From Myxococcota bacterium (GTDB lineage: Bacteria; Myxococcota_A; Bradymonadia; UBA7976; UBA1532), in assembly GCA_036337435.1 (NCBI GenBank), contig JAYZEG010000066.1, positions 29,959 through 93,958 on the forward strand: a DNA stretch of 64,000 nucleotides. The letters are read 5' to 3'. The notes beneath the pieces were generated by a model. That model had not been told where the DNA came from and did not search any database. It was given only the letters and a program-made list of their open reading frames with translations. Below, piece by piece: positions 7,185 to 23,286 of the stretch; within the stretch, counting starts at the first letter, position 1, and every line of letters starts with the position of its first letter. Made by a program: the position numbers and the translations under genes.

Positions 7185-7321
7185 CTAGGGGCACCAAAAC
7201 GACCTTGTGTTGGTCGCTGCACCGTGAGTGGCCTGATTAACGATGCGAGAGACGGTTGGCACTTGTTGTGTGAAGCAGCATCTGGCAACATGTCGAACTA
7301 AGGTTGTTGGGGAAACAGAGA

Positions 7322-8185
7322 ATGGCCGAGCCATACCTGATCGATACGGTCCGCATAAAGACGATGAACGACCAGCTTTGGCGTCGCGTCGGCGTCACTC
7401 AATCCTTTGAGATTCTCCTGGTTGAAGCGGCTTTACTCGGGCCGGGTGTGGCCAATGAGGTCGCGCGTCGAGCCAGTAGCAAACTGAGTGGTGGTGCAGC
7501 TCGATTCTGGGATCTGAGTATCGCACAACTCCAAAAAGATCTATGTCGGCGACGAGTTTTAGTCCTTTCGGATGGGATTCTCCAAGCCCATTCCGACTTC
7601 GCGAGCAAGCTCGATAAAGTGCTTTCTGACCATGAAAGTGCAGTCAGTCGGGTCATGCCAACGCCGGGTGTAACGACGGAGCAGGTGCTCAAAGAAACAG
7701 AAGCGCAAGCCAAAGCGGCGTCCACCAAGAAGAGTGCGCCGAGCAGAAGCAAGAAAGCCCAGCCAACGCCGAGCCGAGAGAGTGCGAGACCACTTAAGCG
7801 TCAGAGTCCAAGCGGAGAGTCAACGGCGGGAGCAAGCCATGCTCCGGTTAAGACGAAACATGTTGACACGCGCCGTTCGGAACTGACCCCTAAGCAGCTC
7901 TTTACATCAAACCGATTGAATCGACTTTTGGATTACCTCGACGACACGACGCTGAGCGTCAATCAGCTCTCAAGTCGACTGGATTTGAGCGGTGGTAATT
8001 TAGACGCCTTGCTCGAGGATACGGGTGCACTACAAATTACACGCGTGAGTCGCGACCGACTGGTCGAACTTCACTGGCGTGGTCGAGAGTTGGTCCGAAC
8101 GGCAGGTGTCGACCGCCGTTTGGCGGTTCTTGATCTCGTCAAGGAATTACGAGAAAAGGCCGACGCGTCCATATCTGAAGAATGA
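7322..8185 (+). CDS. Hypothetical protein; low-complexity linker and possible C-terminal winged-helix domain
   Basis: Long ORF coupled to the next gene by an ATGA overlap. Ser/Lys/Pro-rich linker; LSVNQLSSRLDLSGGNL...LHWRGREL resembles a wHTH. Confidence 0.55.
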   Translation: MAEPYLIDTVRIKTMNDQLWRRVGVTQSFEILLVEAALLGPGVANEVARRASSKLSGGAARFWDLSIAQLQKDLCRRRVLVLSDGILQAHSDFASKLDKVLSDHESAVSRVMPTPGVTTEQVLKETEAQAKAASTKKSAPSRSKKAQPTPSRESARPLKRQSPSGESTAGASHAPVKTKHVDTRRSELTPKQLFTSNRLNRLLDYLDDTTLSVNQLSSRLDLSGGNLDALLEDTGALQITRVSRDRLVELHWRGRELVRTAGVDRRLAVLDLVKELREKADASISEE

Positions 8186-9258
8186 AACCGTCACCGATAA
8201 CACCCATTAATCTGGGACGCTACGTCGTAATTCTTGCGCTTTTGGGCCCCATCACAGCCTTAAGTCAGAATTCCGTTGTTGTTCTTCCGCTGGAAAGCGA
8301 GGCGAGTGACAATGCGACGCAAGACCTAAACGACCAATTGAAAAACGCCATCGAGCGCCAACTGCTGCGGCCTGTTCGAGCCAACATTGAGTTCAGCTTA
8401 GATGAAGCTCGTGTGACCTTTGACTGCGATGAGGAAAATGCACGCTGCATGGCTGAAACAGGGCGGATGTTTCGTACACCCCTTCTCTTCTGGGGCAGTG
8501 TCCGAGGATACGGGCCTTTCGTCCTCTCACTCAGTGGCCTCGATGTCGCGAGGGAATCGATTAGCTATTCAATTACTGTTCAGTTTGAGACAGTCGCCGC
8601 GATGGCCAAGGCGATGGATGATGTTGTCAAGTCTCTCATCAATGGGACAGAATATCGTCCCCGAGACCGCTTGACCGCCATCACGAGCGAACCAGCTGAT
8701 GCGAATGTTTTTTTAAACGGCGAATTAATTGGGCAGACACCATTGAGCTATAATTTGGTCAACCGGGAGGGCAGCCGGTTGGTCATTAAGAAGGGCCGAT
8801 ATACCACGGCGAGTCGAACCATCGAGGATCCATACGGTGATGTGCCCATTCATTTTGTTCTAGAACGAGTCCCTATTTTCCAATCGGAAGAGTCCGAGAG
8901 TGACGTCGAAGATCAGGGGCTCCGTAGACCCGCTTGGCCATTAGTATTGGCAATCACCGGCAGTGCCGCCGGGGCGATTGGGCTGGGCGTCGGAAGCTAC
9001 TATGGCCTGGAAAATCAAAGATTGGAAAAGGAGATGCAAGCTAACATTGCGTCCCAAGCATCCAATGCCGACAAGCGCTCTGTCGACTTGGTCCTGAGGC
9101 AAGATTTTGAACAGAGTCAGTTGATGGCGAACATAAGCTTCGGCATCGGTGCTGCCGCATTAATCGCCGGCGCCTATGGTTTCTACGAGTATTTAAAGAA
9201 CCCTGAAGCCACGGTGCTTGTCGAAGCTGACCGACTCCTCTTCGAGGTCCGTTTCTAG
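8182..9258 (+). CDS. Secreted/membrane PEGA domain protein
   Basis: Signal peptide, ITSEPADANVFLNGELIGQTP PEGA motif, and C-terminal Gly-rich hydrophobic hairpin. Confidence 0.8.
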   Translation: MKPSPITPINLGRYVVILALLGPITALSQNSVVVLPLESEASDNATQDLNDQLKNAIERQLLRPVRANIEFSLDEARVTFDCDEENARCMAETGRMFRTPLLFWGSVRGYGPFVLSLSGLDVARESISYSITVQFETVAAMAKAMDDVVKSLINGTEYRPRDRLTAITSEPADANVFLNGELIGQTPLSYNLVNREGSRLVIKKGRYTTASRTIEDPYGDVPIHFVLERVPIFQSEESESDVEDQGLRRPAWPLVLAITGSAAGAIGLGVGSYYGLENQRLEKEMQANIASQASNADKRSVDLVLRQDFEQSQLMANISFGIGAAALIAGAYGFYEYLKNPEATVLVEADRLLFEVRF

Positions 9259-9265
9259 ACGACTT

Positions 9266-10600
9266 TCACTGGACGTAACTACTTCCCCAATACAAAACAC
9301 GTCTTGGAAACGGGGCTGCAGCCGCGCCCACGCGAGGCGTATCCTCTCCGCCTGGAGATGCAATCTTGATGGCTACATCATTTTTACCATCGGACAGAAA
9401 GTCATCATCCAAACTGCCCGGTACAAGTTCGCCCGTTTTACGCTCGATCCGTGCACTGCCGCCACCGCGCCCATTTCCGCCTCGGCCGGCGGCCAAGTTC
9501 AGTATCACTTCCGTTGTCGGCTCTTCATCTTCTTTGCAGGATGGGCTGACAACCAGAGCAACCCCAAAAGCAACTCGACCGCTGGGTAATCGGATCGCAA
9601 TTGCATCGATTACCCGCTGACCATCATTGGTGACCAACGTGGGTAAAATAGGCACCACATTTTGTACACGGCCATCGGTGGTAAAATAGTTGTCGGTGGT
9701 CTTATCCACATGAACGCCATATAGGCGGCCACGTTCAAGTGTGCTCCCATCGTTGAACGGACCTGTCTCCACCGTTGTGAAGTATGCACCGCCACTCCGA
9801 ACAGCCACCTCGCCGCTGAGCTGTTCCTTTTGTCGCAACGGCATTTTCCAAACCAATTTAGACTGAAATTCAAGCCGATCATTCCCTCCAAGAGTCAGCA
9901 CATCCGACAGACTGAAAAGATGGGGTGCACTCGCCTCTGCTCGATAAGAGTAACCGGTGCCAAAAATGATCCCAATCTGCCCGTTCTCACGCTGAAATAC
10001 AGCAGGTCGAGCGGTGATCTCACGCCCGATCTGATAAAACTCTGCGTCGGCATCATCAGCCATGGGCCACGCAATGCTCATCTCCCATCGATTTGGATTT
10101 GCAGACCGGAGGTCGATACGCCAAAGACGACCCATCGCATCCCCCAAGTAGGCTCGGCTGGCCGGTGCAAGGCCAATGGCTGGGTATACACTGGGCGAAC
10201 CAACCATCGGATAGAGCATCTGATCGCCATCTTTGAGTCCATTGCCCGTGTAAAATGAACGGATCAGGCTCCCGTCAGAGATTTTTCGAATTTGTACACA
10301 GCGCCCACCCGTATTGTCTTGGCGTGCTTGGCCGTTGCTTTCTCTCGTCGGTGTTGCCCCACCGCACCCGACGATCATCGCTGCAACAACTTGATTACCG
10401 ATCCGTACGTAGGTCAGAGCCGGTCTTGAAACCGTCTTTCCCAAGGGGACTTCACTGACGTGATAACCGCTCTCAAGGGTTTGCGCGCCAACCATCGATT
10501 GAACGCCTAATGTGCTGAGTGCAACGACTAAGGCCAATCGCACGCAAGTGAATGCCTGAATGCCGAACCATCGATATCTAGTCACAGTGTGTTGGCTCAT
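9266..10600 (-). CDS. pilY1: PilY1/PilC C-terminal beta-propeller part (second half of a split PilY1)
   Basis: Own signal-peptide-like N-terminus. PilY1 propeller motifs LGKTVSRP, AYLGDAMGRLWRIDL, ITARPAV, IIFGTG, YFTT. Confidence 0.75.
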   Translation of the reverse strand: MSQHTVTRYRWFGIQAFTCVRLALVVALSTLGVQSMVGAQTLESGYHVSEVPLGKTVSRPALTYVRIGNQVVAAMIVGCGGATPTRESNGQARQDNTGGRCVQIRKISDGSLIRSFYTGNGLKDGDQMLYPMVGSPSVYPAIGLAPASRAYLGDAMGRLWRIDLRSANPNRWEMSIAWPMADDADAEFYQIGREITARPAVFQRENGQIGIIFGTGYSYRAEASAPHLFSLSDVLTLGGNDRLEFQSKLVWKMPLRQKEQLSGEVAVRSGGAYFTTVETGPFNDGSTLERGRLYGVHVDKTTDNYFTTDGRVQNVVPILPTLVTNDGQRVIDAIAIRLPSGRVAFGVALVVSPSCKEDEEPTTEVILNLAAGRGGNGRGGGSARIERKTGELVPGSLDDDFLSDGKNDVAIKIASPGGEDTPRVGAAAAPFPRRVLYWGSSYVQ

Positions 10601-13053
10601 TGCCCCGCCCTCCCTGTGGCCCCTTGAAAACCCAAACCAGCCTCCCAGGCCTTGATGGTGTCGTGGGCGAGTGGCTGGTCCTGAGTATTCTCCTTGATTT
10701 GCGGCAAGGCATCCGTGATGTCGATGGCAAAAACGTTTCGCCCAGACTGACCCTGTGCTCCAGCAACGATCGTTCTAAACACAAAATTTTCACTATCAGA
10801 TGGGCAATCTCTGGCACCATCACCATCCACACTTCGACATAAGAGCATATCTCGATTGGCCAAAAGTGTATCAGCACCCATCCTGGCTGGGTTTTCAACA
10901 CCGTGCTTCAAGTTTGGAATCGAGCGTCTATGGACAAAAGAAAAGACCTCTCGCCCATCGGATGCCCGAAAAAAGTGCACCTGCCCGTCATTCGCACCGC
11001 TTACGATCAGGGTTGGGCGTTCACTCTGCTCTTGTTCAAAACGTCGGTACCCAGGACTGTCGACAGCGAGCCGAGGCGGCGTCACTGCAATCAAATCACC
11101 CTCAATGATCTCACCAAGCTGGCGAACATTTTCCGGATCTGGTCCACATGCAGGCGTACAGTCACCCCGGTTTTCAGGGGTCGCAGCAGGACCGACGTAG
11201 CCGGACAAGGCTTTAAAAGCAATCTCCATGAGGCTGTCGCCCGGCGCACCGTCCTCGATCTGCGCGACGTCTCGAAAGTCTGATTCGGTCAGACTGGCAG
11301 CCCCTCGATAGTCCCCATTTGAATCGAACAGGCTATTTCCATTTCCAAGCACAGTAAAGCCTGATTCACCAACACGATTGGGCCGTCGATGGACATTGCC
11401 CACAACAGTGCGCATGTCCTGCTGGGCAAGTTTGACCGCAAGGTCAATTGACTGGCCTTCAATGAGCTTTAACCGGCCCGTATCGGGTTGACCAGCTTGG
11501 CGCCTACAGCCAAATGCCGACACATCGATCCGACCGTATCGAGCACTGGCGGCCAGCGTGCTATACGCAACGACGCGCAGCTGCCGAACTTGGTCATTCA
11601 CCTCATCGCCTCGATCGGGCGTGATCACCAAGGGCATAACCTTTGATTTACGATCTGCATCAAGGGAGACTAAGACCCGTTCGATGGCATTACGCATCTC
11701 ATCCATTGAGCTGACATTGAAGAGGTCGCTGTCATTCGTCACCAAGCTGCGCAAATCATCCCGTCTATCATCGGCGAGACCAACGCCAATCACGACAAAT
11801 CGAAAACCGGGGACAGTCTCCCGCATGGTATCGACGTACGACTGCATCGAATTGTAGGGAAAGGACGGTGGCGTCTGGCATCTAAATCCTGTTCGCACAC
11901 AATTCCGGCTCCCATAAAAATTTGTTTCACCGCCAGACGTAATCAGAACCGCCACATGGGTCCTGCGCGCGTAGTTTAAGTCAGGCAGTAAACCGAAACG
12001 CTCTGCGGCAGCACCAGACTGAGTTTGGTAGTAGTATTTAAGGTCATGAATCAAGCCTGTGAGCGGACTAAACCCGAAGGCGGTCAGACGCCGAACCTGA
12101 TGTTTGATATAGTTGGTATGGCGCTCTAGGCTCACGCCGTCGTCGGCGACGGGCTCAAATGGCCTGCGGGTTCCATTGAGCAAATCACCGGTATTGCTTG
12201 CGATTAAGTCGCCGGGCTGACCACCACCTGGGCCACGAGCACCGAAGTTAGGCGCATTGATTGCGTCAGGTGCCGACAATCGAGACACAATGAAGGCGTT
12301 CTCGAGCAGGCCTGGAAATCGTTGACTCGCAGCCGAGACCGCCTGTCTTGTCGTCCCTTCATCTGTACCAAAGGAACTGTTTCTGCCAAGCAAGCGAGGC
12401 CAAGTTCGGGATGTTCCAGGGTCGTCATCTAAGGTCATCATGCCGAATTTGACTCGGGTCGCATAGCGTTCCAGAGCACTGTCGTTAGCGAACCGAAGAT
12501 CGGGGGTGTTTTCATCGACCAATCGAATGGGACGACACCCATCAGGCCTGGCGGGATCAAAATCAAAGCATTGACCTTGAAGGTTGCGATAGAAGATTGC
12601 CTCGCCGGCATCATTTGGGTCTGGAACAGCGAGTGCTTCGTCTCCCATCACCCGACCGGCGTTGACCAACTCCAGATAGCCAGCCTGTGCAACATTGCGC
12701 GGGAATTCAGCCTGATCTCGAAAACAAGTAATCAAATTCGGATCACCCAAATTATTGATGGGGTTTCCACCGAGGACATTGCGTACCATTTGTAATGCAC
12801 TGAGATGACGAGTCTGAATCAGCGGTTCGTCAGAGAGCGTGACTCGCCTCTCGATCACCCCGTTGACCTCTCTTTCTCTGACCACAAACGACTCGTTACA
12901 CTCTGGGAGTCTATCAGCACGAGGCGATGTCGGGGCCAATCTCATCGACGCCGAATTGTCGATAAGAAACATAACCTCAGGCGGCAAATTATCTTGTGCG
13001 GTGCCGAGGGCTGGCCAACCGATCAATAATGCCATACAGAAATATTTTTTCAT
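10597..13053 (-). CDS. pilY1: PilY1/PilC N-terminal part (vWA-like domain plus start of the beta-propeller)
   Basis: Signal peptide; VMFLIDNSASM (MIDAS DxSxS); LGEI, GANDGQVHFF..GREVFSFV and GRNVFAIDITD motifs. ATGA-coupled to pilX. Confidence 0.8.
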   Translation of the reverse strand: MKKYFCMALLIGWPALGTAQDNLPPEVMFLIDNSASMRLAPTSPRADRLPECNESFVVREREVNGVIERRVTLSDEPLIQTRHLSALQMVRNVLGGNPINNLGDPNLITCFRDQAEFPRNVAQAGYLELVNAGRVMGDEALAVPDPNDAGEAIFYRNLQGQCFDFDPARPDGCRPIRLVDENTPDLRFANDSALERYATRVKFGMMTLDDDPGTSRTWPRLLGRNSSFGTDEGTTRQAVSAASQRFPGLLENAFIVSRLSAPDAINAPNFGARGPGGGQPGDLIASNTGDLLNGTRRPFEPVADDGVSLERHTNYIKHQVRRLTAFGFSPLTGLIHDLKYYYQTQSGAAAERFGLLPDLNYARRTHVAVLITSGGETNFYGSRNCVRTGFRCQTPPSFPYNSMQSYVDTMRETVPGFRFVVIGVGLADDRRDDLRSLVTNDSDLFNVSSMDEMRNAIERVLVSLDADRKSKVMPLVITPDRGDEVNDQVRQLRVVAYSTLAASARYGRIDVSAFGCRRQAGQPDTGRLKLIEGQSIDLAVKLAQQDMRTVVGNVHRRPNRVGESGFTVLGNGNSLFDSNGDYRGAASLTESDFRDVAQIEDGAPGDSLMEIAFKALSGYVGPAATPENRGDCTPACGPDPENVRQLGEIIEGDLIAVTPPRLAVDSPGYRRFEQEQSERPTLIVSGANDGQVHFFRASDGREVFSFVHRRSIPNLKHGVENPARMGADTLLANRDMLLCRSVDGDGARDCPSDSENFVFRTIVAGAQGQSGRNVFAIDITDALPQIKENTQDQPLAHDTIKAWEAGLGFQGATGRAGQ

Positions 13054-13730
13054 CGACGACACCCCCTCATCGTAATCGGGCCAATCACGACGCCTGCTTT
13101 CATCGTATGCTCTGCAAACAGCTCAGCCGCCACTCGGTCATCGAGCTGCTCAGCATTGGGTTCTTCTTCAGCTGCAATGACCGCGCGTGACTCAAAGTGC
13201 ATCAGGCAGCACCCCTGTCCATTTCGGCGCAGTGTACGTTCATCGTGACCGGGTGGACATGTCCAAGGCTGAAACCCTGTCACAGAGACGCTGTAACTCG
13301 GCTTGACACCGGTCGCTACGCCAGCGACCCCGAGGGGAGCAGGACCAGAGCTAAAAAAGGGCGGTGCTGCCATGGCTCGTTCCGAAATCCGGTTGCCATC
13401 TCGATTGTAGACTTCGACCAAACCTCGGGTCGCACCCGCATCCTGCACGGGGCTCTTTATCTGAAGGGTCGACCATTCCATACCAGGGCCATCACGCAAT
13501 GGCAGCAAGACGCCTGCCTGACGATTCATGAGAGTGACCGCATGATAGAGACCGATCTCAGCGACATGGCGTGCTTGAATCGAAAGTCGTAAATTACCAG
13601 AACCGCTCATATTCTGAGTTGCTGAACGCATTGCCATCATCCCAACGGCCAGCAGCGCGAGAAGGACCACAACTGTGACGATGAGTGCACCACCGCGTTG
13701 ATGCGTCCGTGTGTGTCGTCTCCCCATCAT
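13050..13730 (-). CDS. pilX: Type IV minor pilin, PilX-like
   Basis: QRG|GALIVTVVVLL class III signal lacking Glu+5; ARHVAEIGL motif; position in the operon. Confidence 0.8.
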   Translation of the reverse strand: MMGRRHTRTHQRGGALIVTVVVLLALLAVGMMAMRSATQNMSGSGNLRLSIQARHVAEIGLYHAVTLMNRQAGVLLPLRDGPGMEWSTLQIKSPVQDAGATRGLVEVYNRDGNRISERAMAAPPFFSSGPAPLGVAGVATGVKPSYSVSVTGFQPWTCPPGHDERTLRRNGQGCCLMHFESRAVIAAEEEPNAEQLDDRVAAELFAEHTMKAGVVIGPITMRGCRR

Positions 13731-14953
13731 TGGCCCCGATACATATTGGGTGTTTCAACCTCAGTTTTGAGGGTCATCACACGGGCAAACCCCGTACCCG
13801 CTTCTTGGTTGAGCTCGAACCAACTGCGGTCCGCACCAATTCGATCATCAGCGGCCATCGCCTGGTCAGGTGCCACACGAAACGTTTCATCTTCCCTCGG
13901 CGTGCGAATGGCCAGCATCACGTTCAAGCCTCTGATCCGCTGTGGTCGTTCGTTGAAGATTTGACTTTCACGTTCCGTGGTCCAATTGCCCCGGTCGTCA
14001 GTGGGGTCTTCGTCTGGTGCAATGACAGGCCTCGGATCGGCACCAAACGCCAAGCTACGCGTATCGTAGGATGCCCAGACCTGGAAATTAACCGCGTATG
14101 GTGCCAGGACCATCGCGTCGTCGATGGGTTCTAGACTCACCGGATCTAATGTTCTCCGAATCAGAAAAGTTGCACCCTCTGTTTGAGGGGCTAACTCAAA
14201 CTCCGGTGTTGCTTCCAAGATTGCATATTCAACCAATTGAACCGGTGTGATGAGACACCCACCGGGCGCGCATTCCGTCGATAAGGCAGGCTCGCCCGCG
14301 AGGCAAAGATCATCAAGGAGTCGTAATTCAACCTCGTCGTCTCCTCGAGATCGTACTTCGGCGACCACCAAGTCACTCTGGCCTGACGGCGACACAATAT
14401 GGACGAAGGCACGATCCGAGAAATACATAAATCTGGTCAAAGATTCGCGCGCCTTTTGCGTTCGCTGGTCTACCAGATTGAGGCGCACCTGACGGCGATT
14501 GACCCGCGAAATGGTATACGTAACGCCTTCGGAACGGTCCACAAGTAAACGTAATCGATCAGGCCGCAGGTTATTGCCAAAACGAATGAGTGACTCGGGC
14601 GTGTCTTGATGGCGTTCGAGCAGTTCGATCGCCCGATGCCCGGATCGAGTCGAACAAAAGCGCGGATCTCGACCAACGATCCCAACACGCCCACCGAGTT
14701 CGATCCCGTTTACAACCGAAAGTCGACCGACGCTCCGTAAATCATTTTTTACGTATTCGAGAGCGAAGCGCATGCTTTCCTGCATTTGGACGATTTGCTC
14801 TTGTGCATAGTACTGGCGACTGGCCGTGATAAACACCAAATAGGCTGCCACCATAACGATGCCGGCGAAAAGAAGTGCGACCAAGAGTTCAACAAAAGTA
14901 AACCCCCTCTGGGACTGCACAGCTGCCCGTGCTTTGGAGTATCTGAGACTCAT
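13727..14953 (-). CDS. pilW: Type IV minor pilin, PilW-like
   Basis: QRG|FTFVELLVALL prepilin motif; QESMRFALEYVKNDLRSVG motif. Confidence 0.85.
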   Translation of the reverse strand: MSLRYSKARAAVQSQRGFTFVELLVALLFAGIVMVAAYLVFITASRQYYAQEQIVQMQESMRFALEYVKNDLRSVGRLSVVNGIELGGRVGIVGRDPRFCSTRSGHRAIELLERHQDTPESLIRFGNNLRPDRLRLLVDRSEGVTYTISRVNRRQVRLNLVDQRTQKARESLTRFMYFSDRAFVHIVSPSGQSDLVVAEVRSRGDDEVELRLLDDLCLAGEPALSTECAPGGCLITPVQLVEYAILEATPEFELAPQTEGATFLIRRTLDPVSLEPIDDAMVLAPYAVNFQVWASYDTRSLAFGADPRPVIAPDEDPTDDRGNWTTERESQIFNERPQRIRGLNVMLAIRTPREDETFRVAPDQAMAADDRIGADRSWFELNQEAGTGFARVMTLKTEVETPNMYRGQ

Positions 14954-15501
14954 TGAGCACTCCGAATCACCGATGGCACCACAACGGAATAGTACTTCGA
15001 CACGTTTGGCCTAAACTCCTGCGCGCCCTGTTCCGGACAGACGGTTCTCATTTCATCTGCGTCCATTGGATTCTTAGACCAGACGACGCGAATGCGAACA
15101 TTGAGCAATTGTGCATATAGGCCGTCGAGCGGTTCGAACCAATAGTGAACACAGAAGCGTTGCCGATTTATGGCGCTCCCAAACTCATCGTCGTCCTCGA
15201 TATAGGCAAGTCCGTTATGGTCGATGGGGAAATCACCAAAGCTGTGCCAACGCCGAACATCTTTATTGAGGTGTGGCCCTGGGCGTTGATCACCGATCCA
15301 CGCAAAGCTCTCCGTCCGCAAAAGGTCGACATGCCGCTCTGCCAAAGTCATGGCCGCTGACATATCCCGCGCTGAGATATTGGCCAGCATCGTTCCAATT
15401 TGGAGAGAGAAAAGTGCCGCAAAACCAACGGCGGCCACGCCGGATGCAATCAAAACTTCGACAACAGTGAAGCCTGCGTTTCGTCGTAGACGGTTCATCA
15501 T
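14950..15501 (-). CDS. pilV: Type IV minor pilin, PilV-like
   Basis: NAG|FTVVEVLIA prepilin motif; V.IRVVW motif; position in the operon. Confidence 0.8.
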   Translation of the reverse strand: MMNRLRRNAGFTVVEVLIASGVAAVGFAALFSLQIGTMLANISARDMSAAMTLAERHVDLLRTESFAWIGDQRPGPHLNKDVRRWHSFGDFPIDHNGLAYIEDDDEFGSAINRQRFCVHYWFEPLDGLYAQLLNVRIRVVWSKNPMDADEMRTVCPEQGAQEFRPNVSKYYSVVVPSVIRSAQ

Positions 15502-16184
15502 TGGCTCACCATCATGCGTGCTGCTCCAAAACCGGGAAAGATGATTCGTCTGGCCGCACCAACGCCCTCGAACGCATCACCCCGAGCTTTATAACGTTGA
15601 ACCCGAACTTCGACGAATTGATCGAGCACTTGTAGATTGGGTGCAACAACGAAGGTCTGGCCAGCAGGACTCAAACACAGTCTGAGCCGATTGGCTGTAA
15701 ACCCACCGTCAGAGCCTCTGCGCCAGCCGCTAAAACCAACATTCTTTTCGTTCGTTCCCTTATAACCAGGAACGACAGTTCCACCCACCAGGACCGAATT
15801 CAAGTAGAGAGCTGCGGCATTGCCCTCTTCGAGGATTTGTTGACTTGCTGTTGTGCACGCATTTGTACGTGCTTCTAAAAAGTCTATTCGCCCACCGGGA
15901 GTGCCCGCTCTGAACAGAAGAAAGTCGACGATCACGGCACGGTTCCGTCGCATTGCCTGACTTCGTGCTTGATTGAACATGTGGGTCAATCGAGTCGCAG
16001 CACCACTCGCCGCCGCACCACCACTGAACGTTCGCATCGACGGATACGCCAACATGGTGACCACGATAACAATGGTGACCACCCCCAGCAGTTCGCCGAT
16101 GGTGAATCCACCCTGCCACCGGCGCGCACTACGGACCTGCACACCGAGGTTCAAACTTGGCTTGTATTCATCTCTGCTATTCAA
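15498..16184 (-). CDS. Type IV minor pilin, FimT/FimU (GspH-like)
   Basis: QGG|FTIGELLGVV prepilin motif; ARSQAMRRN motif typical of FimT/GspH. Exact start uncertain. Confidence 0.8.
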   Translation of the reverse strand: MNSRDEYKPSLNLGVQVRSARRWQGGFTIGELLGVVTIVIVVTMLAYPSMRTFSGGAAASGAATRLTHMFNQARSQAMRRNRAVIVDFLLFRAGTPGGRIDFLEARTNACTTASQQILEEGNAAALYLNSVLVGGTVVPGYKGTNEKNVGFSGWRRGSDGGFTANRLRLCLSPAGQTFVVAPNLQVLDQFVEVRVQRYKARGDAFEGVGAARRIIFPGFGAARMMVSQ

Positions 16185-16321
16185 CAGTGGTCTCCCCGAT
16201 TAGCCGACCCATACACAATGAAGCAGCGCCGTCATGACAGAGTTGCAAGATCCGGACCTAAATGCCATCCCCTTAACAACGCTGAATTGGCTGCCAAACA
16301 CTCAAGACAACTATGCATTTT

Positions 16322-16350
16322 TTGCACACTTGACCAATCATTGCACACTT
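16322..16350. repeat. 10-bp direct repeat (TTGCACACTT x2) in the divergent promoter region
   Basis: Copies at 16322-16331 and 16341-16350. Confidence 0.6.
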
Positions 16351-16426
16351 AGTCGAAGGAACCTAACATGACTCATATTCGACAACTTAGGGGCGTCATC
16401 GACGCAAACGTCGAGCTGCTATATTC

Positions 16427-17785
16427 ATGGGTGACGATCACAAAATTGGACTTTGCTTCCTACTGATACTCTTCAGCAGCACGCTCCCGGTAAATGCAGA
16501 GCGCTACCATGTCAAATTAGACACAGTATTGAACATGGACAGGTGGTATTCAGGGTACGAATACATGGTGGAGACCACCGATATTAATCACCGTTTGAGG
16601 CTTCACATTTTCGAAGGAACGCCTGGCGATGAATCGACCATCACGACCTTCGACATGGCTATATCCAGTGACATTGGGCCCGAAGCGGACGCTTATCGTC
16701 AGTGGGGTAGCGGACGGAGAACTAATTTAGAAATCTATCAGGGGTCGGTAACCCTACTGAAACTGGTTCCAAGAAGTCGAATCAAACTAGGTCGACAAAT
16801 ATTTTGGGATGCCCTCGGCGCAGGCGCGTTCGATGGGATATCCCTGCAGACAACTCCGTTTTCTATGGTTCATCTGACAGGTCGATTTGGGCAAACCCTG
16901 AGGCCGAATACGGCTCGTTTCGGCTATTTCTTACCGTCGCCGGTCACCGGTGAGCGACGTCGTAGGGGCTATCTCATTGCTGGGCGTTTGCGACTAGAGC
17001 CCATGGACGCACTTCACGGTGAGTTCGGCTACCGTCGGCACTTCAATGACCAGCTTCAAAGAGAGGAAATCTCAGCATCAGCCCGAGTGCAACCAGCCCC
17101 TTGGTCCAGCAACACCGTCCTGATTTGCGCTGACTTAATTTTTGAACAAATCTCCGAATGGCGATTGCTCACAGAATTTGCCTGGGAGCAAAACCGGATT
17201 GCACTTGAAGCGGCCTATCTCAGGCCCAGGTTCGATGCTGACAGCATCTGGGTCGCCTTCGCACCTGCACCTCATCACTCGGCCTCAGTCAACGCATCCA
17301 AATTCATGGGTAAAATTCAACTGGGTGCACGGATCGACGGAACGCTTTTCCAAACTGATTTTGACAGCTTAGAGCCCTTTAATACAGCGCATTGGGCAAA
17401 AGAAAATACTGCCACCAGGGGGTCTTTATTCGTCAATTATCGCCTCAGTAGGGGCGGCGTTCCTTCAGGGTCCATGGGCATTCAGGGACACATCAGTCGA
17501 GGCTACGGTGGACAATTCACAGCCGTGTCTACAAATACGCATATCCCACTCGCCAACTCTCGGTCTTTCTCGCGCGTATCCATACGCAGCCGTCTCGGCG
17601 TTGCACAACTGAGCCGCGATTCATCTCTGGTATGGTCGGGCCTGTCAAGTTGGGGGCTTGTGGGCGTGGACTGGCGTCCCGATGATGGTGTACTCAGCCA
17701 ACTCGCGGTTGAGGGCTTTTCGGGTATGCCCGAGTCAGAGCATATACGCATTTTTCTTGCCGTCCGTATGGAGAATTTCTGGTGA
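16427..17785 (+). CDS. Outer-membrane beta-barrel protein, cytochrome-associated porin-like
   Basis: Signal peptide, IKLGRQ...FDG motif, amphipathic beta-strands and C-terminal aromatic residue (ENFW). GTGA overlap with the cytochrome gene. Confidence 0.65.
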   Translation: MGDDHKIGLCFLLILFSSTLPVNAERYHVKLDTVLNMDRWYSGYEYMVETTDINHRLRLHIFEGTPGDESTITTFDMAISSDIGPEADAYRQWGSGRRTNLEIYQGSVTLLKLVPRSRIKLGRQIFWDALGAGAFDGISLQTTPFSMVHLTGRFGQTLRPNTARFGYFLPSPVTGERRRRGYLIAGRLRLEPMDALHGEFGYRRHFNDQLQREEISASARVQPAPWSSNTVLICADLIFEQISEWRLLTEFAWEQNRIALEAAYLRPRFDADSIWVAFAPAPHHSASVNASKFMGKIQLGARIDGTLFQTDFDSLEPFNTAHWAKENTATRGSLFVNYRLSRGGVPSGSMGIQGHISRGYGGQFTAVSTNTHIPLANSRSFSRVSIRSRLGVAQLSRDSSLVWSGLSSWGLVGVDWRPDDGVLSQLAVEGFSGMPESEHIRIFLAVRMENFW

Positions 17786-18864
17786 GATTCATCATCCGAT
17801 TAGCCGTATTTATCCTCGTGGCAGCGCAGGCCGTCGCTGCGCCCCCAGTCGGCGCTGTTCTCGATGTAGGACCGGCCGACGGCAGCGAACGCGTATGCGT
17901 TTCGTGTGTTCCATCAACACGAGTGGACAAAGCACCTTCTTTGCCAGTGATACAGTCCGCCTGCAGCGAATGCCACTCAAACAAAAGACAGCCGTTAGTG
18001 GGGCCAGTGCAACCTCATAGTTCACCCGCATTGGAGACCTTTAGACGAACCCCCGGAATTCAATTCAATCATGAATTACACATTCAGACCATCGCCTGTG
18101 GCGGCTGCCATGCTCCGACAAATGAGGGTCAGTTAGCGACGCCCCTCATGCAGCAATGCATGGATTGTCACACCGAAAACAAAATGAATAATCGTTGTGA
18201 CCTATGCCACCAGACAGGTGCTGGTGGCGTCTTGAAAACACGCTTGGGACTTCACACTCTGCGTCCAACTCAGCGAATTCTTCCTGACGTTTTCCATCAT
18301 ACCGATTTTAAAACCAATCATGGACTTCAAGCGAGAACTCATAGCCAAACATGCCAGAACTGCCACACGCCTGATGAATGCACGACCTGTCACCAAATGG
18401 AGACGCGCATCGGCGTGCACCAGGGTGATTATATTCGGTTCCACCCAGTTGAGGCGCGCCACGACCCAACCAGCTGCTCCAGTTGCCACCAGCCGACCAC
18501 CTTTTGCCGAGATTGCCATAGCCGGGCGGGACTCAGCCCTGCACCTGGCCCTAGGCAGTTTGGCCGAACCGATGGTCGGCTTAAGTTTCACCCACCCGGC
18601 TTTACTGATTTGCCTGGCACCGCAAGGGGTGCCCAGCACCATGCCTTTGCAGCACAAAAAGACCTGAGTTCATGTGCGACATGCCACAGTCCCAATGACT
18701 GCGTACGTTGTCATTCAACCAATGCTCCGCTCAGCCTTAGAGCGTCCCCCCACCCGAAACGCTTTCGATGTGGGAAAGCCCTCGAAGTGAGTGCGAATGG
18801 GTGTCGGACATGTCATACTGATATCTTGAGTCTAAGAATTCGATGCCAAGCCTTGGGGAACTAA
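17782..18864 (+). CDS. Secreted multiheme cytochrome c (11 CxxCH; c3/c7-like modules)
   Basis: Signal peptide; CSECH, CGGCH, CMDCH, CDLCH, CQNCH, CTTCH, CSSCH, CRDCH, CATCH, CVRCH, CRTCH, plus many extra His residues. Confidence 0.92.
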   Translation: MRFIIRLAVFILVAAQAVAAPPVGAVLDVGPADGSERVCVSCVPSTRVDKAPSLPVIQSACSECHSNKRQPLVGPVQPHSSPALETFRRTPGIQFNHELHIQTIACGGCHAPTNEGQLATPLMQQCMDCHTENKMNNRCDLCHQTGAGGVLKTRLGLHTLRPTQRILPDVFHHTDFKTNHGLQARTHSQTCQNCHTPDECTTCHQMETRIGVHQGDYIRFHPVEARHDPTSCSSCHQPTTFCRDCHSRAGLSPAPGPRQFGRTDGRLKFHPPGFTDLPGTARGAQHHAFAAQKDLSSCATCHSPNDCVRCHSTNAPLSLRASPHPKRFRCGKALEVSANGCRTCHTDILSLRIRCQALGN

Positions 18865-18871
18865 TACGACC

Positions 18872-20056
18872 GTGAGAGACCTATTCGGCAAGATGTACAA
18901 ATGCTGTCCGCGGTATCTGTCTCTGGTCTTCCTTCTTTTTTTGGCTGGTTGCGGTGCGCCTGACGACCTCAAAAGTCCGATAAATCAAGTTCCAATCAGC
19001 TGTCCCACGTTGCTCGAAGCAATGCCGAGAACCTATGGCCTGTTTGAAAGCGGTGAACTGCCGGCAATCAAGTCATTAATTGCCGAAAGTTTAACCGATG
19101 CGCAATTCTCAGCCCTGTTGGATGCAATTCTGACTATCATTCGTGACCTATCGCCGACTGAGTTGGACGACCTATCAAGCTTGGCGGAAACCACAAATTT
19201 TCAATCAGTTACCCAGACGCTGGTGTCGGTTTTTCAATTCATTGGAGGTACGCAGGACGGGCGTCTCCCCTATCGAAGAGAAATCGTAACTGCTTTACGC
19301 CGCATCATCACCAATTGCGAAGCCAATTCACTTCTCTCCGCCATCAATTATACACTGACCTCCGCAGAGCTGCCAGACCTCTTAAGGGATCTGAGTGCAC
19401 TGATGAATGACGAGCGTTTTCAGAATGTTCTCGATGTACAGGGGGGGTTGAGCCGAGATGGGTTTGCAGCCCTGGTCTGTAATGCAACCAACAATCTTTC
19501 CAAAAATGATTTCTCGATCCTCAACGATATCATACAGCCCATTGCCGCCCTTGATGTCTTGCCCTTGGACCAACCACCCATTAACAGTTTTCTACGGAAT
19601 TTAGACCTCTTATTGAGCGACAGCCGTCCACTCCGCCCAGCCCTCGCCAATACCGTCTGTTGTAATCTCTATGACGTGCCACAATGTGCATCTATTGGAC
19701 CGAGAACGTCGGTCATTGACCGGCCCCCCGTATTCGTATGGGCAATGCACGATATCCTCTCCACCCCGACCCCCCAATTGGAGAGTTTGCTCGAACAACT
19801 GAGGCTATTTATTGATAACCCTGTCGTCGCGCCAGCACTGCGCCCCTTGTCTGTAGCACTCAACAAAATAAGCGAGCGTTTTGCAGTGAGGCAAGCCATC
19901 GCAAGTGTGCTTCGGTCGCTCTTCGAACCCGACCGGGCGGAGTTTCTGATGCGGGAAGTTGTCGCCTTACTCAACGTCGGTTTCGTCGATGAACTTTTAC
20001 AAGTCGTCCGCCTCATCGCCAAAGGTTGCCAGCCGCAGGATATACGGAGCCAATGA
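18872..20056 (+). CDS. Alpha-helical lipoprotein of unknown function
   Basis: Lipobox LFLAG|C and Leu-rich helical body. Alternative start ATG 18893. Confidence 0.7.
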   Translation: MRDLFGKMYKCCPRYLSLVFLLFLAGCGAPDDLKSPINQVPISCPTLLEAMPRTYGLFESGELPAIKSLIAESLTDAQFSALLDAILTIIRDLSPTELDDLSSLAETTNFQSVTQTLVSVFQFIGGTQDGRLPYRREIVTALRRIITNCEANSLLSAINYTLTSAELPDLLRDLSALMNDERFQNVLDVQGGLSRDGFAALVCNATNNLSKNDFSILNDIIQPIAALDVLPLDQPPINSFLRNLDLLLSDSRPLRPALANTVCCNLYDVPQCASIGPRTSVIDRPPVFVWAMHDILSTPTPQLESLLEQLRLFIDNPVVAPALRPLSVALNKISERFAVRQAIASVLRSLFEPDRAEFLMREVVALLNVGFVDELLQVVRLIAKGCQPQDIRSQ

Positions 20057-21378
20057 AGCAATTTTTCTACTTGGCCGGAATGCTGGCTACACTCTCAGCA
20101 CCCATTGCTCTGAGTGCCAGTCCCCTCGACATCTTTGAATTTGAAGCGCGGGGTAGTGCCATGGGTGGTGCTATGACCGCCGGTTCCAACGACTACACAG
20201 CTGTCTTTTACAACCCCGGTGCCTTGACTCAAGCGAAGACATTGACGACCGGTTTCGGACTTTTAAGTTCCTTTCCTCAAGCCTCACTGAGCTTGAATAA
20301 AACTGCACAAGACGACGCGTCAAGACCACTGGAGCCGGGACAACGTCACGGCATATCAATGGGACTGAGTACACCACTGGGAGGCGGAATTGGAAACCGG
20401 TTTGCTTTGGGAATCGGCATTTATGCCCCCTTTGCCCATAGCCTGCGGGGCGAAATCTTGGCACCTCAGGCCCCTCAATTTTATCGATACCAAAATCGAC
20501 CCGACCGATTTGTTGGTTTGAGTGCTCTTGCATTCAAAGTGACCAATTGGCTCAGCATTGGAATCGGCGTAAGTCTTTTAGCGGACTTGGTTGGACGGGT
20601 TCGCCTAGACCTTCGGGTCAGCGAAAGGCGAGTCGTTTCACAATCAGCACGGGTCGATTTCCCCCTTAAACTGACGCCAACGGCCGGTATAGTATTGACA
20701 CCGTTTGCTGCCTTTAAATTGGGCCTAAGCTGGCGCAAAGACACCATGCTTAATTTCAAGATTCCAAGCGCACTCGCAGTGGATGACGCAATCGAACTAG
20801 AGTTCGTTGTCGGTGGTGTTGTACTCTACAGCCCGGAAACATATGCACTTGGCATGAGCTACGCCTTTAGCCACTGGGATGCGGTGGTTTCAGTCGACGC
20901 ACTGTGGACAAGGTGGTCGAAGGCACCGGATCCGTCTTTGCGCATCAACGTGAACGCAGCCGGCCCGTTACTCGACGCACTGGGCGTCGAAGATCGCCTA
21001 GATATCCAAGGCCGGCCGCCCATCGATTTAGCATTCCGAGACGTGGTCCAATTTAAGGTCGGCTTGGAACAACCCGTATTTGAGCAGCTCACTCTCCGAA
21101 CGGGATATCACTACAGACCAGCACCAGCACCACTGCCGTCTGGCCCCTACAATTATCTTGACCCAAGTTCCCATAGGGCCTCATTGGGTATGGGTGTGCA
21201 ATTAAGCAAGGCGGATAATCCATCATCACGAACAGTTTCTCTAGACTTAGCCTACGCTGCTACGGTAATCCCCCAGGTAAAGATTGCGCAACGAGCTGGT
21301 CCGCTGGATCCCGTCGGGGATTTCGTAGCAAAAGCTGTCATTCATAGCGTCAACATCAGTTTGTTGCACAAGTTCTAA
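20053..21378 (+). CDS. OmpP1/FadL/TodX family outer-membrane transporter
   Basis: ARGSAMGGA..A..YNPGAL hatch motif, WLSIGIG, LTLRTGY and C-terminal Phe. ATGA overlap with the lipoprotein gene. Confidence 0.85.
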   Translation: MKQFFYLAGMLATLSAPIALSASPLDIFEFEARGSAMGGAMTAGSNDYTAVFYNPGALTQAKTLTTGFGLLSSFPQASLSLNKTAQDDASRPLEPGQRHGISMGLSTPLGGGIGNRFALGIGIYAPFAHSLRGEILAPQAPQFYRYQNRPDRFVGLSALAFKVTNWLSIGIGVSLLADLVGRVRLDLRVSERRVVSQSARVDFPLKLTPTAGIVLTPFAAFKLGLSWRKDTMLNFKIPSALAVDDAIELEFVVGGVVLYSPETYALGMSYAFSHWDAVVSVDALWTRWSKAPDPSLRINVNAAGPLLDALGVEDRLDIQGRPPIDLAFRDVVQFKVGLEQPVFEQLTLRTGYHYRPAPAPLPSGPYNYLDPSSHRASLGMGVQLSKADNPSSRTVSLDLAYAATVIPQVKIAQRAGPLDPVGDFVAKAVIHSVNISLLHKF

Positions 21379-21426
21379 AACTTCGCCTGGCGAGACTCCG
21401 CAAACGGAGATGGAGTAGACATTTTC

Positions 21427-23286
21427 ATGATGAATTTTCTCGACCTAGCAAAAAGTGGCGGGCTTCTCTTCGACGGGGCGATGGGCACCATGCTCTATCA
21501 GCGTGGAATTTTTCTCAATCGCTGCTTCGAAGCCGTCAACTTAGAGCAACCTGAGCTGGTCGGCCGGATACATCAAGAGTACCTTCAAGCGGGTGCCCAA
21601 GTCATCACTGCCAACACCTTTGGTTCGGGTCGACTCAAGTTAGAAAAGCATGGACTCAGCGATAAATTTGAAGACATTAACCGCCGTGGTGTGGAACTGG
21701 CGCAAAATGCCGTCGAGGGTCGCGCCTACGTGGCCGGTAGCATTGGTCCATCAGGGATCGTCGGTCTTTCAGGGCTCGCTGGTGAGGAAGGGCTGCGCGC
21801 ACAAGAGAGTCTGCAGGAACACATTTCACTGCTGGTCGATGCCGGGGTTGACCTCTTGTGTTTGGAGACATTTGGTGTCGTCTCCGAACTTGAATTGGCC
21901 ATTCGTCTGAGTAAAGCGTACTGCGACTTGCCGGTCGTTGCGTTGTGTATGTTTACAGAAGGTGGTTCGACCCGACGGGGGCTTACACCGGAAGCGGTTG
22001 GGCGCCGCCTGATCGATGCTGGAGCCGATGTCATCGGAGCCAATTGTGGTGGCGGCCCTGACCATCTTTTCGGTGTGACAACCAGACTGGTCGATTTGGG
22101 TCATCCGGTGGTTGCCATGGCCAATGCTGGCAACCCCAAGACGGTTGAGAACCGAACGATTTACGTAGCCAACCCGGAATATTTCGGTGTCTTCGCAAGA
22201 CGTTTGTTTAAGGCAGGGGTGAAGGTTGTTGGCGGCTGCTGCGGCACAACGCCCGAGCATGTCCGACGAATGGCAAACTCCGCACGAATGCTGCGCGCCA
22301 CGAACGGCGTTCTCGACGCTGAATACGTGGACTCCGGAAAAGACTATACAGGACGAATCACGCCCCTGGCAGACCGAAGTGAGCTCGGTGCGTCCCTCGA
22401 CCGGAATGAATTTGTGACCAGCGTCGAGCTCAACCCACCCAACGGTCTCGATTTGTCGTCACGGATCACTGCAGCCCGTGCCTTGCAGGACTTCGGTGTG
22501 ACAACCATCAACATCGCCGACGGTCCACGAGCAAGCTTGAGAATGGGCAACGTGGCAATGGCCGTTGAAGTCGCTCACAAGACGAGTTTATCTCCCCTCG
22601 TTCATGTCTGCTGTCGTGACCGAAACTATCTGGGGTTACAATCACATCTTCTCGGCATGCATGTCCAAGGGATACGCAATATCGTCGTAATCACGGGTGA
22701 CCCACCAAAAATGGGGCCATTCCCCCATGCTACAGGCGTTTATGACGTCAATAGTATCGGGCTATTGGACTTAATCCAGGGGTTTAACCACGGCATCGAT
22801 GCCAGTGGTCAAACTTTGCCAGACCGTACCTCGTTCGTGTGCGCTACGGGCGCAGAGCCAGCTGCCCACGACTATGACCGGGAATTGAGACGGCTGGAAA
22901 TGAAAATCAACGCAGGGGCCAGTGTCATCATGACCCAGCCTGTTTACGATTCAGCTGTCATAGAGCGATTCTTAAACGACATCAAAGAATTCAATGTCCC
23001 CGTAATGCTTGGTTTGTGTCCCCTGGCAAGCTATCGGAATGCAGTTTTCCTCCATAAGAACGTGCCCGGTATGAGCGTCCCTGACGATGTCCTAGCACGG
23101 ATGAAAAGTGCCGATGACAATGGACAGGGTCAAGAAGCGGGTATCGCCATCGCCCGGGAGGCTTTGGCGGCCAGTCGTTCGAATATCCAGGGTGCATATA
23201 TCATGCCTCCATTTGGACGATACAAGGTGGCAATGGCCGTTTTGGACGGTTTTGTAGGCCCGCAAAAAATGACTCCGAAAGGCTGA
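21427..23286 (+). CDS. yitJ: Bifunctional homocysteine S-methyltransferase / 5,10-methylenetetrahydrofolate reductase
   Basis: DGAMGT, GANC and GGCCGTTP (HMT domain); IADGPRA, CRDRN..GLQS, TGDPP and TQPVY (MTHFR domain). Confidence 0.92.
   Translation: MMNFLDLAKSGGLLFDGAMGTMLYQRGIFLNRCFEAVNLEQPELVGRIHQEYLQAGAQVITANTFGSGRLKLEKHGLSDKFEDINRRGVELAQNAVEGRAYVAGSIGPSGIVGLSGLAGEEGLRAQESLQEHISLLVDAGVDLLCLETFGVVSELELAIRLSKAYCDLPVVALCMFTEGGSTRRGLTPEAVGRRLIDAGADVIGANCGGGPDHLFGVTTRLVDLGHPVVAMANAGNPKTVENRTIYVANPEYFGVFARRLFKAGVKVVGGCCGTTPEHVRRMANSARMLRATNGVLDAEYVDSGKDYTGRITPLADRSELGASLDRNEFVTSVELNPPNGLDLSSRITAARALQDFGVTTINIADGPRASLRMGNVAMAVEVAHKTSLSPLVHVCCRDRNYLGLQSHLLGMHVQGIRNIVVITGDPPKMGPFPHATGVYDVNSIGLLDLIQGFNHGIDASGQTLPDRTSFVCATGAEPAAHDYDRELRRLEMKINAGASVIMTQPVYDSAVIERFLNDIKEFNVPVMLGLCPLASYRNAVFLHKNVPGMSVPDDVLARMKSADDNGQGQEAGIAIAREALAASRSNIQGAYIMPPFGRYKVAMAVLDGFVGPQKMTPKG

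Follow-up and report, generated by a model that had tools for sequence, protein, structure and literature searches.

A stretch of 64,000 nucleotides from a Myxococcota bacterium (assembly GCA_036337435.1, contig JAYZEG010000066.1, positions 29,959 to 93,958), hereafter the window, carries a conserved head-to-head pair of operons, one for the tip of a type IVa pilus and the other for a multiheme cytochrome with outer-membrane partners. The list of open reading frames (ORFs) places ten genes at 9266-21378, six on the minus strand and four on the plus strand (Table 1), and reproduces exactly the coordinates that an earlier note, made from the DNA letters alone, had given for all ten. The spacer of about 240 bp that the note had described measures 242 bp. 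Its statement that most junctions are 4-bp overlaps also holds, as we found such overlaps at fimT/pilV, pilV/pilW, pilW/pilX, the two pilY1 reading frames (Y1a/Y1b) and barrel/cytochrome (GTGA). Between pilX and Y1a, 13 bp overlap when Y1a is counted from its GTG start; a start at Met4 would reduce the overlap to 4 bp (ATGA). A gap of 7 bp lies between the cytochrome and lipoprotein genes. For the FadL-like gene, the ORF finder chose a TTG at 20026 (450 aa); judging from the sequence, the gene probably starts at the ATG at 20053, giving 441 aa, as long as its counterpart in the related locus L001. With this start, the lipoprotein/FadL junction is an ATGA overlap as well.

Table 1. Features of the head-to-head locus, followed by the genes adjoining it; positions are those of the window.
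Feature	Position	Strand	Size	Identifying evidence
22-strand outer-membrane beta-barrel	16427..17785	+	452 aa	AlphaFold2 model; signal peptide; C-terminal Trp
Secreted 11-heme c-type cytochrome, c7/c3 type	17782..18864	+	360 aa	Pfam Cytochrome_C7
Lipoprotein, orphan family	18872..20056	+	394 aa	LAGC lipobox; no heme motif
FadL/TodX-family outer-membrane barrel (probable start)	20053..21378	+	441 aa	Pfam Toluene_X (PF03349), 49.2 bits against a cut-off of 29.7
Divergent intergenic spacer	16185..16426	none	242 bp	
Conserved spacer element	16308..16352	+		T-tract then GCACA; direct repeat TTGCACACTT, two copies
FimT/FimU (GspH-family) minor pilin	15498..16184	-	228 aa	Pfam GspH, 24.4 bits against a cut-off of 21; GFTIGE
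PilV-like minor pilin	14950..15501	-	183 aa	N_methyl; GFTVVE; TIGR02523 PilV, E=2.1e-5, below cut-off
PilW-position minor pilin	13727..14953	-	408 aa	Pfam N_methyl and TIGR02532 prepilin domain; GFTFVE
PilX-like minor pilin	13050..13730	-	226 aa	Pfam PilX_N, 30.7 bits against a cut-off of 25.5
PilY1, N-terminal part	10597..13062	-	821 aa	Pfam T4P_PilY1 at residues 650-784, E=0.0031 (16.9 bits), below cut-off
PilY1, C-terminal half	9266..10600	-	444 aa	Weak NCBIfam PilC tip-adhesin match
PEGA-domain secreted protein	8182..9258	+	358 aa	Pfam PEGA, E=2.8e-7
Homocysteine methyltransferase/MTHFR fusion (MetH/MTHFR)	21427-23286			Next gene downstream of the FadL-like gene; housekeeping

The first gene of the plus-strand operon encodes a 452-aa protein that had been guessed to be a barrel. 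The AlphaFold2 model, built on a 29-sequence alignment, supports this guess, as it consists of 22 strands (pLDDT 84.9, pTM 0.78) with the plug domain absent and a single disordered loop at residues 161-178. Twenty-two strands is the size of the TonB-dependent receptors, whose lumen holds a plug of about 150 residues; with that many strands and no plug, the modeled barrel could accommodate a slim heme wire. The family is rare, as only 43 relatives at E<=0.001 emerged when 1.84 billion representative proteins were searched exhaustively with HMMER, and its full-length members are 420-484 aa long and end in an aromatic residue. The best-conserved segments are loop motifs rather than strands (RPRFSADSIW at 266-278 and GR...DG at 122-137), which would be expected if the barrel had a specific partner. 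Pfam and NCBIfam gave no match to the protein, and the Foldseek matches were generic barrels only (Occ/OprD porins and usher pores; TM-scores no higher than 0.54). Clusters of barrel look-alikes from Gemmatimonadota were recorded in an atlas search.

The cytochrome is the sole multiheme ORF in the 64-kb window. It contains exactly 11 CXXCH motifs, the number first reported for it, and its Pfam Cytochrome_C7 match bears out the c3/c7 family for which a hidden Markov model (HMM) search had been proposed. Its signal peptide is of type I, and it lacks a lipobox. The protein includes 26 His and 4 Met, and there is about one heme per 31 residues. In a 19-sequence alignment, nine CXXCH motifs and seven further non-motif His are invariant, and these motifs and extra His would fit mostly bis-His, low-potential hemes. 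Motif numbers in eight locus orthologues are 11 in L001, 12 in L002, L003 and L005, and 13 in L006-L009. At residues 39-43 (17896-17910), the window protein carries a degenerate CVSCV where most relatives have CXXCH.

Against the PDB, the best match of the cytochrome profile was dodecaheme GSU1996 (3ov0, E=3.8e-27), its closest solved relative, with all three c7-type repeats of 3ov0 matching profile positions 35-176 of 391. Weaker matches were to Alternative Complex III pentaheme subunits, to high-molecular-weight cytochromes and to 6r2q chain A (1.1e-7), which we take to be MtrA although the label in the PDB search differs. The window cytochrome had no NCBIfam match. On this sequence evidence, it is of the c7-polymer type and not clearly of the MtrA/DmsE type. 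Its AlphaFold2 model is of moderate confidence (pLDDT 73.9, pTM 0.41), and Foldseek found no match to it at E<=0.001. Related cytochromes of about 477 aa that carry 16 CXXCH motifs are on record from Gemmatimonadota; given these and the barrel look-alikes, the barrel-cytochrome pair may also occur outside Myxococcota.

The two remaining plus-strand products had been labeled a lipoprotein and a FadL-like protein, and both labels proved apt. The LAGC lipobox of the former includes Cys27, which is invariant across all nine orthologues together with six more Cys. The lipoprotein contains no CXXCH, and its nine orthologues share no conserved heme motif. Searches of Pfam and the PDB returned nothing for it below E=0.04, an atlas search gave scores below 0.8 and no lead, and the family appears small, with at least five relatives in the protein search. 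The FadL-like protein lies above the gathering score of PF03349 (Table 1). Its PDB profile matches are 3dwo, FadL, TodX and TbuX, all distant (best E=2.5e-5), with no PorV chain among them, and its N-terminal 34 residues weakly match PorV/PorQ in NCBIfam. At 38-39% identity to its distant relatives, it is better conserved than the other three plus-strand proteins, which are 24-41% identical to theirs.

On the minus strand, the order GspH/FimT, PilV, PilW, PilX fits a type IVa minor-pilin set, and the first three proteins carry G-F-T-x-x-E leader junctions. The length of the FimT-like ORF is counted from a TTG, and a later true start is possible. The last two reading frames, pilY1a and pilY1b, had been taken for two genes. 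We found instead that a single PilY1 is divided between them, the N-terminal part in the first and the C-terminal part in the second, and that they are not paralogues, as they are collinear with the unsplit 1195-aa PilY1 of L008: the 821-aa ORF aligns with residues 8-761 of that protein (E=1e-65), and the 444-aa ORF, over its own residues 52-443, with residues 798-1195 (39% identity, E=8e-77). The 821-aa part contains the first propeller blades and, near its N terminus, DNSAS (DxSxS), a vWA/MIDAS motif by eye. The C-terminal half has acquired what looks by eye like a signal-peptide N terminus of its own. The four unsplit orthologues that were scanned all exceed the PF05567 cut-off (28.3-60.9 bits vs 28.1), and because the domain spans roughly residues 650-1000 in unsplit orthologues, the break falls inside the beta-propeller. 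In L001 (2838-6634), PilY1 is split in the same way and again with a 4-bp overlap, its halves being 89-91% identical to those of the window, which makes a sequencing error or a recent pseudogene unlikely. PilY1 is unsplit (1195-1309 aa) in the six more distant orthologues. A regular-expression search for Dx(D/N)xDGxxD, given as the PilY1 calcium-binding motif in the accessible text of a survey of PilY1 loci (PMC13190605), returned no match in the two window halves and the six orthologues.

The relatives of the locus come from a barrel-motif scan, based on a 10-sequence alignment, of 185,579 species genomes; 59 stretches matched, 10 of which encode a relative, in nine loci (L001-L009). All named loci belong to Myxococcota metagenome-assembled genomes, one of them labeled Bradymonadia. 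L001 is a close relative with 75% barrel identity, and the other loci show 24-28%. The earlier note had held that its proposal would fail if the two operons were unlinked in relatives. They are linked: fimT-pilV-pilW-pilX stands head-to-head with barrel-cytochrome-lipoprotein-FadL, in the same order, in eight of eight loci with enough flank, and in the ninth (L004, a 2.1-kb contig), a fimT fragment is still divergent from the barrel gene. In the seven loci that reach far enough, the pilins are followed by PilY1 and then by a PEGA-domain gene. Across the loci, the ten core genes are never separated or reordered. The outer flanks are rearranged: RF3 occurs in either orientation, the PEGA gene can be inverted, and the distance to MurJ varies. 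The gene after FadL is MetH/MTHFR in the window and L001 and RF3, on either strand, in six other loci.

Two concatenated trees, one built from the pilin genes (989 columns) and the other from those of the plus strand (1606 columns), have all supported clades in common, and the pairwise distances of the two operons correlate with r=0.90, the points not being independent. This agreement of the trees argues for vertical inheritance of the block as a unit, over about 5-6 deep lineages. The GC content is 52.5% in the window, about the same in L001 (52-53%) and 71-76% in the other carriers, a large change in composition inside a single lineage that bears the cluster; in each case, the cluster matches its host genome. 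When the window is compared with L001, divergence reaches 22% in the plus-strand proteins but only 9% in the four minor pilins and about 7-8% in the housekeeping proteins of the flanks, an imbalance between plus-strand proteins and pilins that is absent from the other close genome pairs. The barrel/cytochrome module is either evolving fast or under relaxed constraint in the window-L001 lineage.

The spacer between the operons is 123-235 bp long across the eight loci measured, counted from chosen starts. In the window, the copies of TTGCACACTT lie at 16322 and 16341 with a 19-bp period, and the repeat occurs nowhere else in the window with one mismatch allowed. The surrounding block of about 45 bp (approximately 16308-16352) is identical in the window and L001, with many mismatches in the remaining spacer. 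From these sequences, we drew, after inspection, a pattern consisting of four or more T, an optional G/T, CA, C/G/T and A. The pattern is present in eight of eight loci examined (L001 and L003-L009) and in the window, always on the barrel strand and 59-142 bp upstream of the barrel start. Counted on both strands, there is one copy in each of L001-L008, three in L009 and 12 in the 64-kb window; the once-per-locus count is partly circular because the pattern was derived after viewing the sequences, and for the single copy in L002, where the spacer bounds are undefined, a position within the spacer is not established. A second, TTGCRCAC-like copy follows 19-20 bp further on in six of nine. The element is AT-rich and sits inside otherwise unalignable spacers of 65-76% GC.

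The spacer element is probably a regulator-binding site. A sigma-70 consensus scan of 16000-16600 returned no site. By eye, the T-tract/TTGCA element was rejected as a sigma-54 site for its misfitting spacing, and it fits a CRP/FNR-type palindrome only loosely; we name no regulator for it.

The conserved block has a further member, overlooked in the earlier note, in the PEGA-domain gene (8182-9258). Its orthologue adjoins PilY1 in all seven loci reaching that far (L001, L003, L005-L009), and only in the window and L001, where it is inverted, does it lie on the strand opposite to the pil genes. An extra ORF of about 170-210 aa stands between the PEGA gene and PilY1 in L006-L009 and probably L005, and in four loci it resembles a small lipoprotein by eye. 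Upstream of the block, 4629-8185 encodes a Ser/Thr kinase fused to FGE-sulfatase-like and PEGA domains as well as a 293-aa ORF; both are found in the window, L001 and L003 (3-1841 of L003) and may represent a regulatory module. Genes for ribosomal protein L17, rpoA and secY occupy the far end of the window. An Rfam scan of 9000-21500 gave a single match, to an archaeal snoRNA, at chance level.

Starting from what is directly established, namely the gene content, the modeled barrel fold, the heme motifs, the lipobox with its Cys, the block and the spacer motif, we tentatively favor, with less than even confidence, a porin-cytochrome-like outer-membrane conduit that would be functionally coupled to the type IVa pilus tip. 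Going beyond these observations, the wide 22-strand barrel would sheathe the secreted, mostly bis-His cytochrome with its 11-13 hemes, and electrons would cross the outer membrane through this barrel-cytochrome conduit. The disulfide-rich, heme-less lipoprotein and the FadL-family barrel would serve as fixed accessory partners. The shared spacer would co-regulate both operons, and the pilus tip and the outer-membrane module would work together, so that attachment would be coupled to electron exchange at the surface. That the two operons share a function is made plausible by their fixed pairing and by the conserved element in the spacer. Coupling of attachment to electron exchange appears the likeliest such function because the genes form one inherited block, are transcribed divergently and share a short spacer with a conserved element.

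A precedent is provided by TfcP, a small, single-heme cytochrome. According to the accessible part of the report on it, TfcP is a periplasmic, His/Cys-ligated cytochrome c that is needed for the cluster_1 minor pilins and PilY1.1 of Myxococcus xanthus, stabilizes PilY1.1 and is unlikely to be an electron carrier (PMC8833165). The tfcP gene lies directly upstream of pilY1.1, as stated in the accessible text of the survey of PilY1 loci (PMC13190605). Thus, as far as these texts go, PilY1 systems of Myxococcota can recruit cytochromes (PMC8833165).

A number of observations weigh against a conduit coupled to the pilus tip. Homology of the barrel to MtrB/PioB, for which an HMM search had been suggested, did not emerge: none of the 29 barrel members meaningfully matched MtrB/PioB or any other porin family at E<=1, where seven matches were noise. 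A PDB profile search with the barrel at E<=10 returned no MtrB chain, and MtrB is absent among the Foldseek matches listed for the model. The cytochrome is closest to GSU1996 rather than MtrA, its match to 6r2q chain A being comparatively weak, and the DmsE-family model TIGR03508 matched weakly in 5 of 19 cytochrome orthologues (best 5.5e-7). A rod shape of the cytochrome is unsupported, given the pTM of its model and the lack of a significant structural neighbor. Because no heme motif is present in the lipoprotein, the operon lacks the usual outer cytochrome partner. No ccm/ccs cytochrome-maturation gene was found among the scanned ORFs of the window, which is too short for this to say much. 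Finally, the relatives represent one phylum and only about 5-6 deep lineages, and RF3 (six loci) and MurJ (five, including L001) also stay within 10 kb of the block, so some of the linkage may be plain gene-order conservation and not selection.

This last point leads to the possibility, which we consider rather unlikely, that a real redox module and an ordinary pilus-tip set are unrelated neighbors and that their adjacency is inherited gene order. The persistence of RF3 and MurJ indicates that the lineage keeps its local gene order; moreover, the sampling covers a single phylum with few deep lineages, congruent trees are expected from vertical descent, and both the barrel look-alikes and the 16-heme cytochrome relatives are found in Gemmatimonadota. 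Against mere neighborhood, the borders of the block and its flanks were rearranged while the ten core genes stayed together and in order, and the spacer remained short (123-242 bp) with its conserved motif.

It is unlikely, though conceivable in the light of TfcP, that the plus-strand operon is a pilus accessory module, in which the cytochrome and its outer-membrane partners would stabilize, mature or anchor the PilY1/minor-pilin tip and no respiratory electron flow would take place. Such a role would follow the example of a cytochrome that is encoded in a minor-pilin cluster and stabilizes PilY1.1, as described in the accessible texts (PMC8833165; PMC13190605). It would agree with the strict operon adjacency in every locus found, with a PilY1 that lacks the calcium motif and so may need another stabilizer, and with a weak match of the FadL-like protein to the NCBIfam "pilus system FadL family" model FilD (E=1.8e-4). 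However, 11-13 covalent hemes with invariant motifs and distal His would be costly for a purely structural role. Moreover, we know of no role for an open 22-strand barrel in type IVa pilus machines, which also counts against such a module. TfcP is His/Cys-ligated, as the accessible part of its report has it (PMC8833165), while only His-rich ligation is evident for the window cytochrome.

A more ambitious proposal, which we regard as distinctly doubtful, is a single contact-dependent electron-transfer apparatus made up of the pilus tip together with the heme module, in which the heme-less, disulfide-rich lipoprotein and the FadL-like barrel would dock the tip complex. The PilY1-tipped pilus would find a redox-active partner, be it a mineral, a particle or a prey cell, and pull the cell onto it. 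Where the two touch, the 22-strand barrel with its 11-13-heme wire would then let electrons through the outer membrane.

We consider it improbable that the operon serves uptake combined with periplasmic redox chemistry, with both barrels acting as channels for a hydrophobic or bulky compound and the cytochrome as a periplasmic carrier or store. The FadL/TodX membership above the Pfam cut-off would suit such a function, as would the best match of the cytochrome to GSU1996, a periplasmic protein, and the presence of substrate-specific Occ/OprD porins in the top Foldseek rows for the barrel. Yet, the conserved block contains no catabolic or reductase gene, 22 strands are much wider than the 18-strand Occ channels, and the lipoprotein and the fixed pilus link would be left unexplained. 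Last, pilus-driven export, in which a short fiber primed by the minor pilins and PilY1 would surface or release the cytochrome like the piston of type II secretion, as has been proposed for Geobacter cytochrome nanowires, is highly improbable. It could draw only on the conserved adjacency, a GspH-family first pilin gene and a cytochrome whose signal peptide is of type I and which lacks a lipobox, but the block has no secretin, ATPase or platform gene and no solved nanowire cytochrome is among the significant matches.

We found no description of the present cluster in the literature. In the accessible text of a 2026 survey of myxobacterial PilY1 loci, tfcP is the sole cytochrome neighbor mentioned (PMC13190605). 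Anaeromyxobacter is a known case of extracellular electron transfer, and the accessible part of the source on it does not describe the combined cluster (PMC11495043); beyond Anaeromyxobacter, we found little literature on extracellular electron transfer in Myxococcota. The barrel and lipoprotein families are unnamed, and together with the present type of PilY1, they make up three uncharacterized families.

If the conduit is real, it would represent a porin-cytochrome architecture in uncultured Myxococcota with no sequence link to MtrB/PioB, made of a 22-strand barrel, a c7-polymer cytochrome, a heme-less lipoprotein and a FadL-type partner. Its fixed pairing with a pilus-tip operon offers a testable handle on whether pili and outer-membrane cytochromes act jointly at contact sites. 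A single contact-dependent apparatus would amount to a new class of electron transfer and to a second, different use of a cytochrome by PilY1 systems of Myxococcota. If the module only assists PilY1, the helper would grow from a small protein with a single heme to an outer-membrane complex. This would extend the finding on TfcP, as presented in the accessible part of its report (PMC8833165).

Compared with TfcP as far as it is described in those texts, the window system is similar in that a cytochrome c of Myxococcota is encoded with a fimU-pilV-pilW-pilX-pilY1 set. It differs, in a comparison made by description only, in having 11-13 hemes across the loci and a divergent four-gene outer-membrane operon, and its PilY1, unlike the TfcP-assisted PilY1.1, lacks the calcium motif. 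The likeness to GSU1996 lies in sequence, as this protein is the best solved relative of the window cytochrome and its three c7-type repeats are matched; in contrast, the whole window cytochrome model has no significant structural match. GSU1996 is a soluble protein of the periplasm and has no barrel dedicated to it. The FadL-like protein resembles FadL, TodX and TbuX in exceeding the Toluene_X cut-off, but its gene stands beside a cytochrome gene and not beside catabolic genes.

The closest parallel is with the porin-cytochrome conduits, such as MtrCAB of Shewanella and OmbB-OmaB-OmcB or Ext of Geobacter. As in these systems, a large plugless barrel is encoded beside a secreted multiheme cytochrome with about 30 residues per heme, an outer-membrane lipoprotein follows, and the genes are translationally coupled; the plus-strand order of porin, secreted multiheme cytochrome and lipoprotein is that of Geobacter ombB-omaB-omcB. 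The differences are equally clear. MtrB has 26 strands, whereas the window barrel has 22 and no sequence homology to it; the window cytochrome is of the c7-polymer type; and the lipoprotein, unlike the outer lipoprotein cytochrome of Geobacter, carries no heme motif. The plus-strand operon is at best conduit-like and not a member of the known porin-cytochrome families, to whose layout it adds a fixed fourth member of the FadL family and the genes of a pilus tip.

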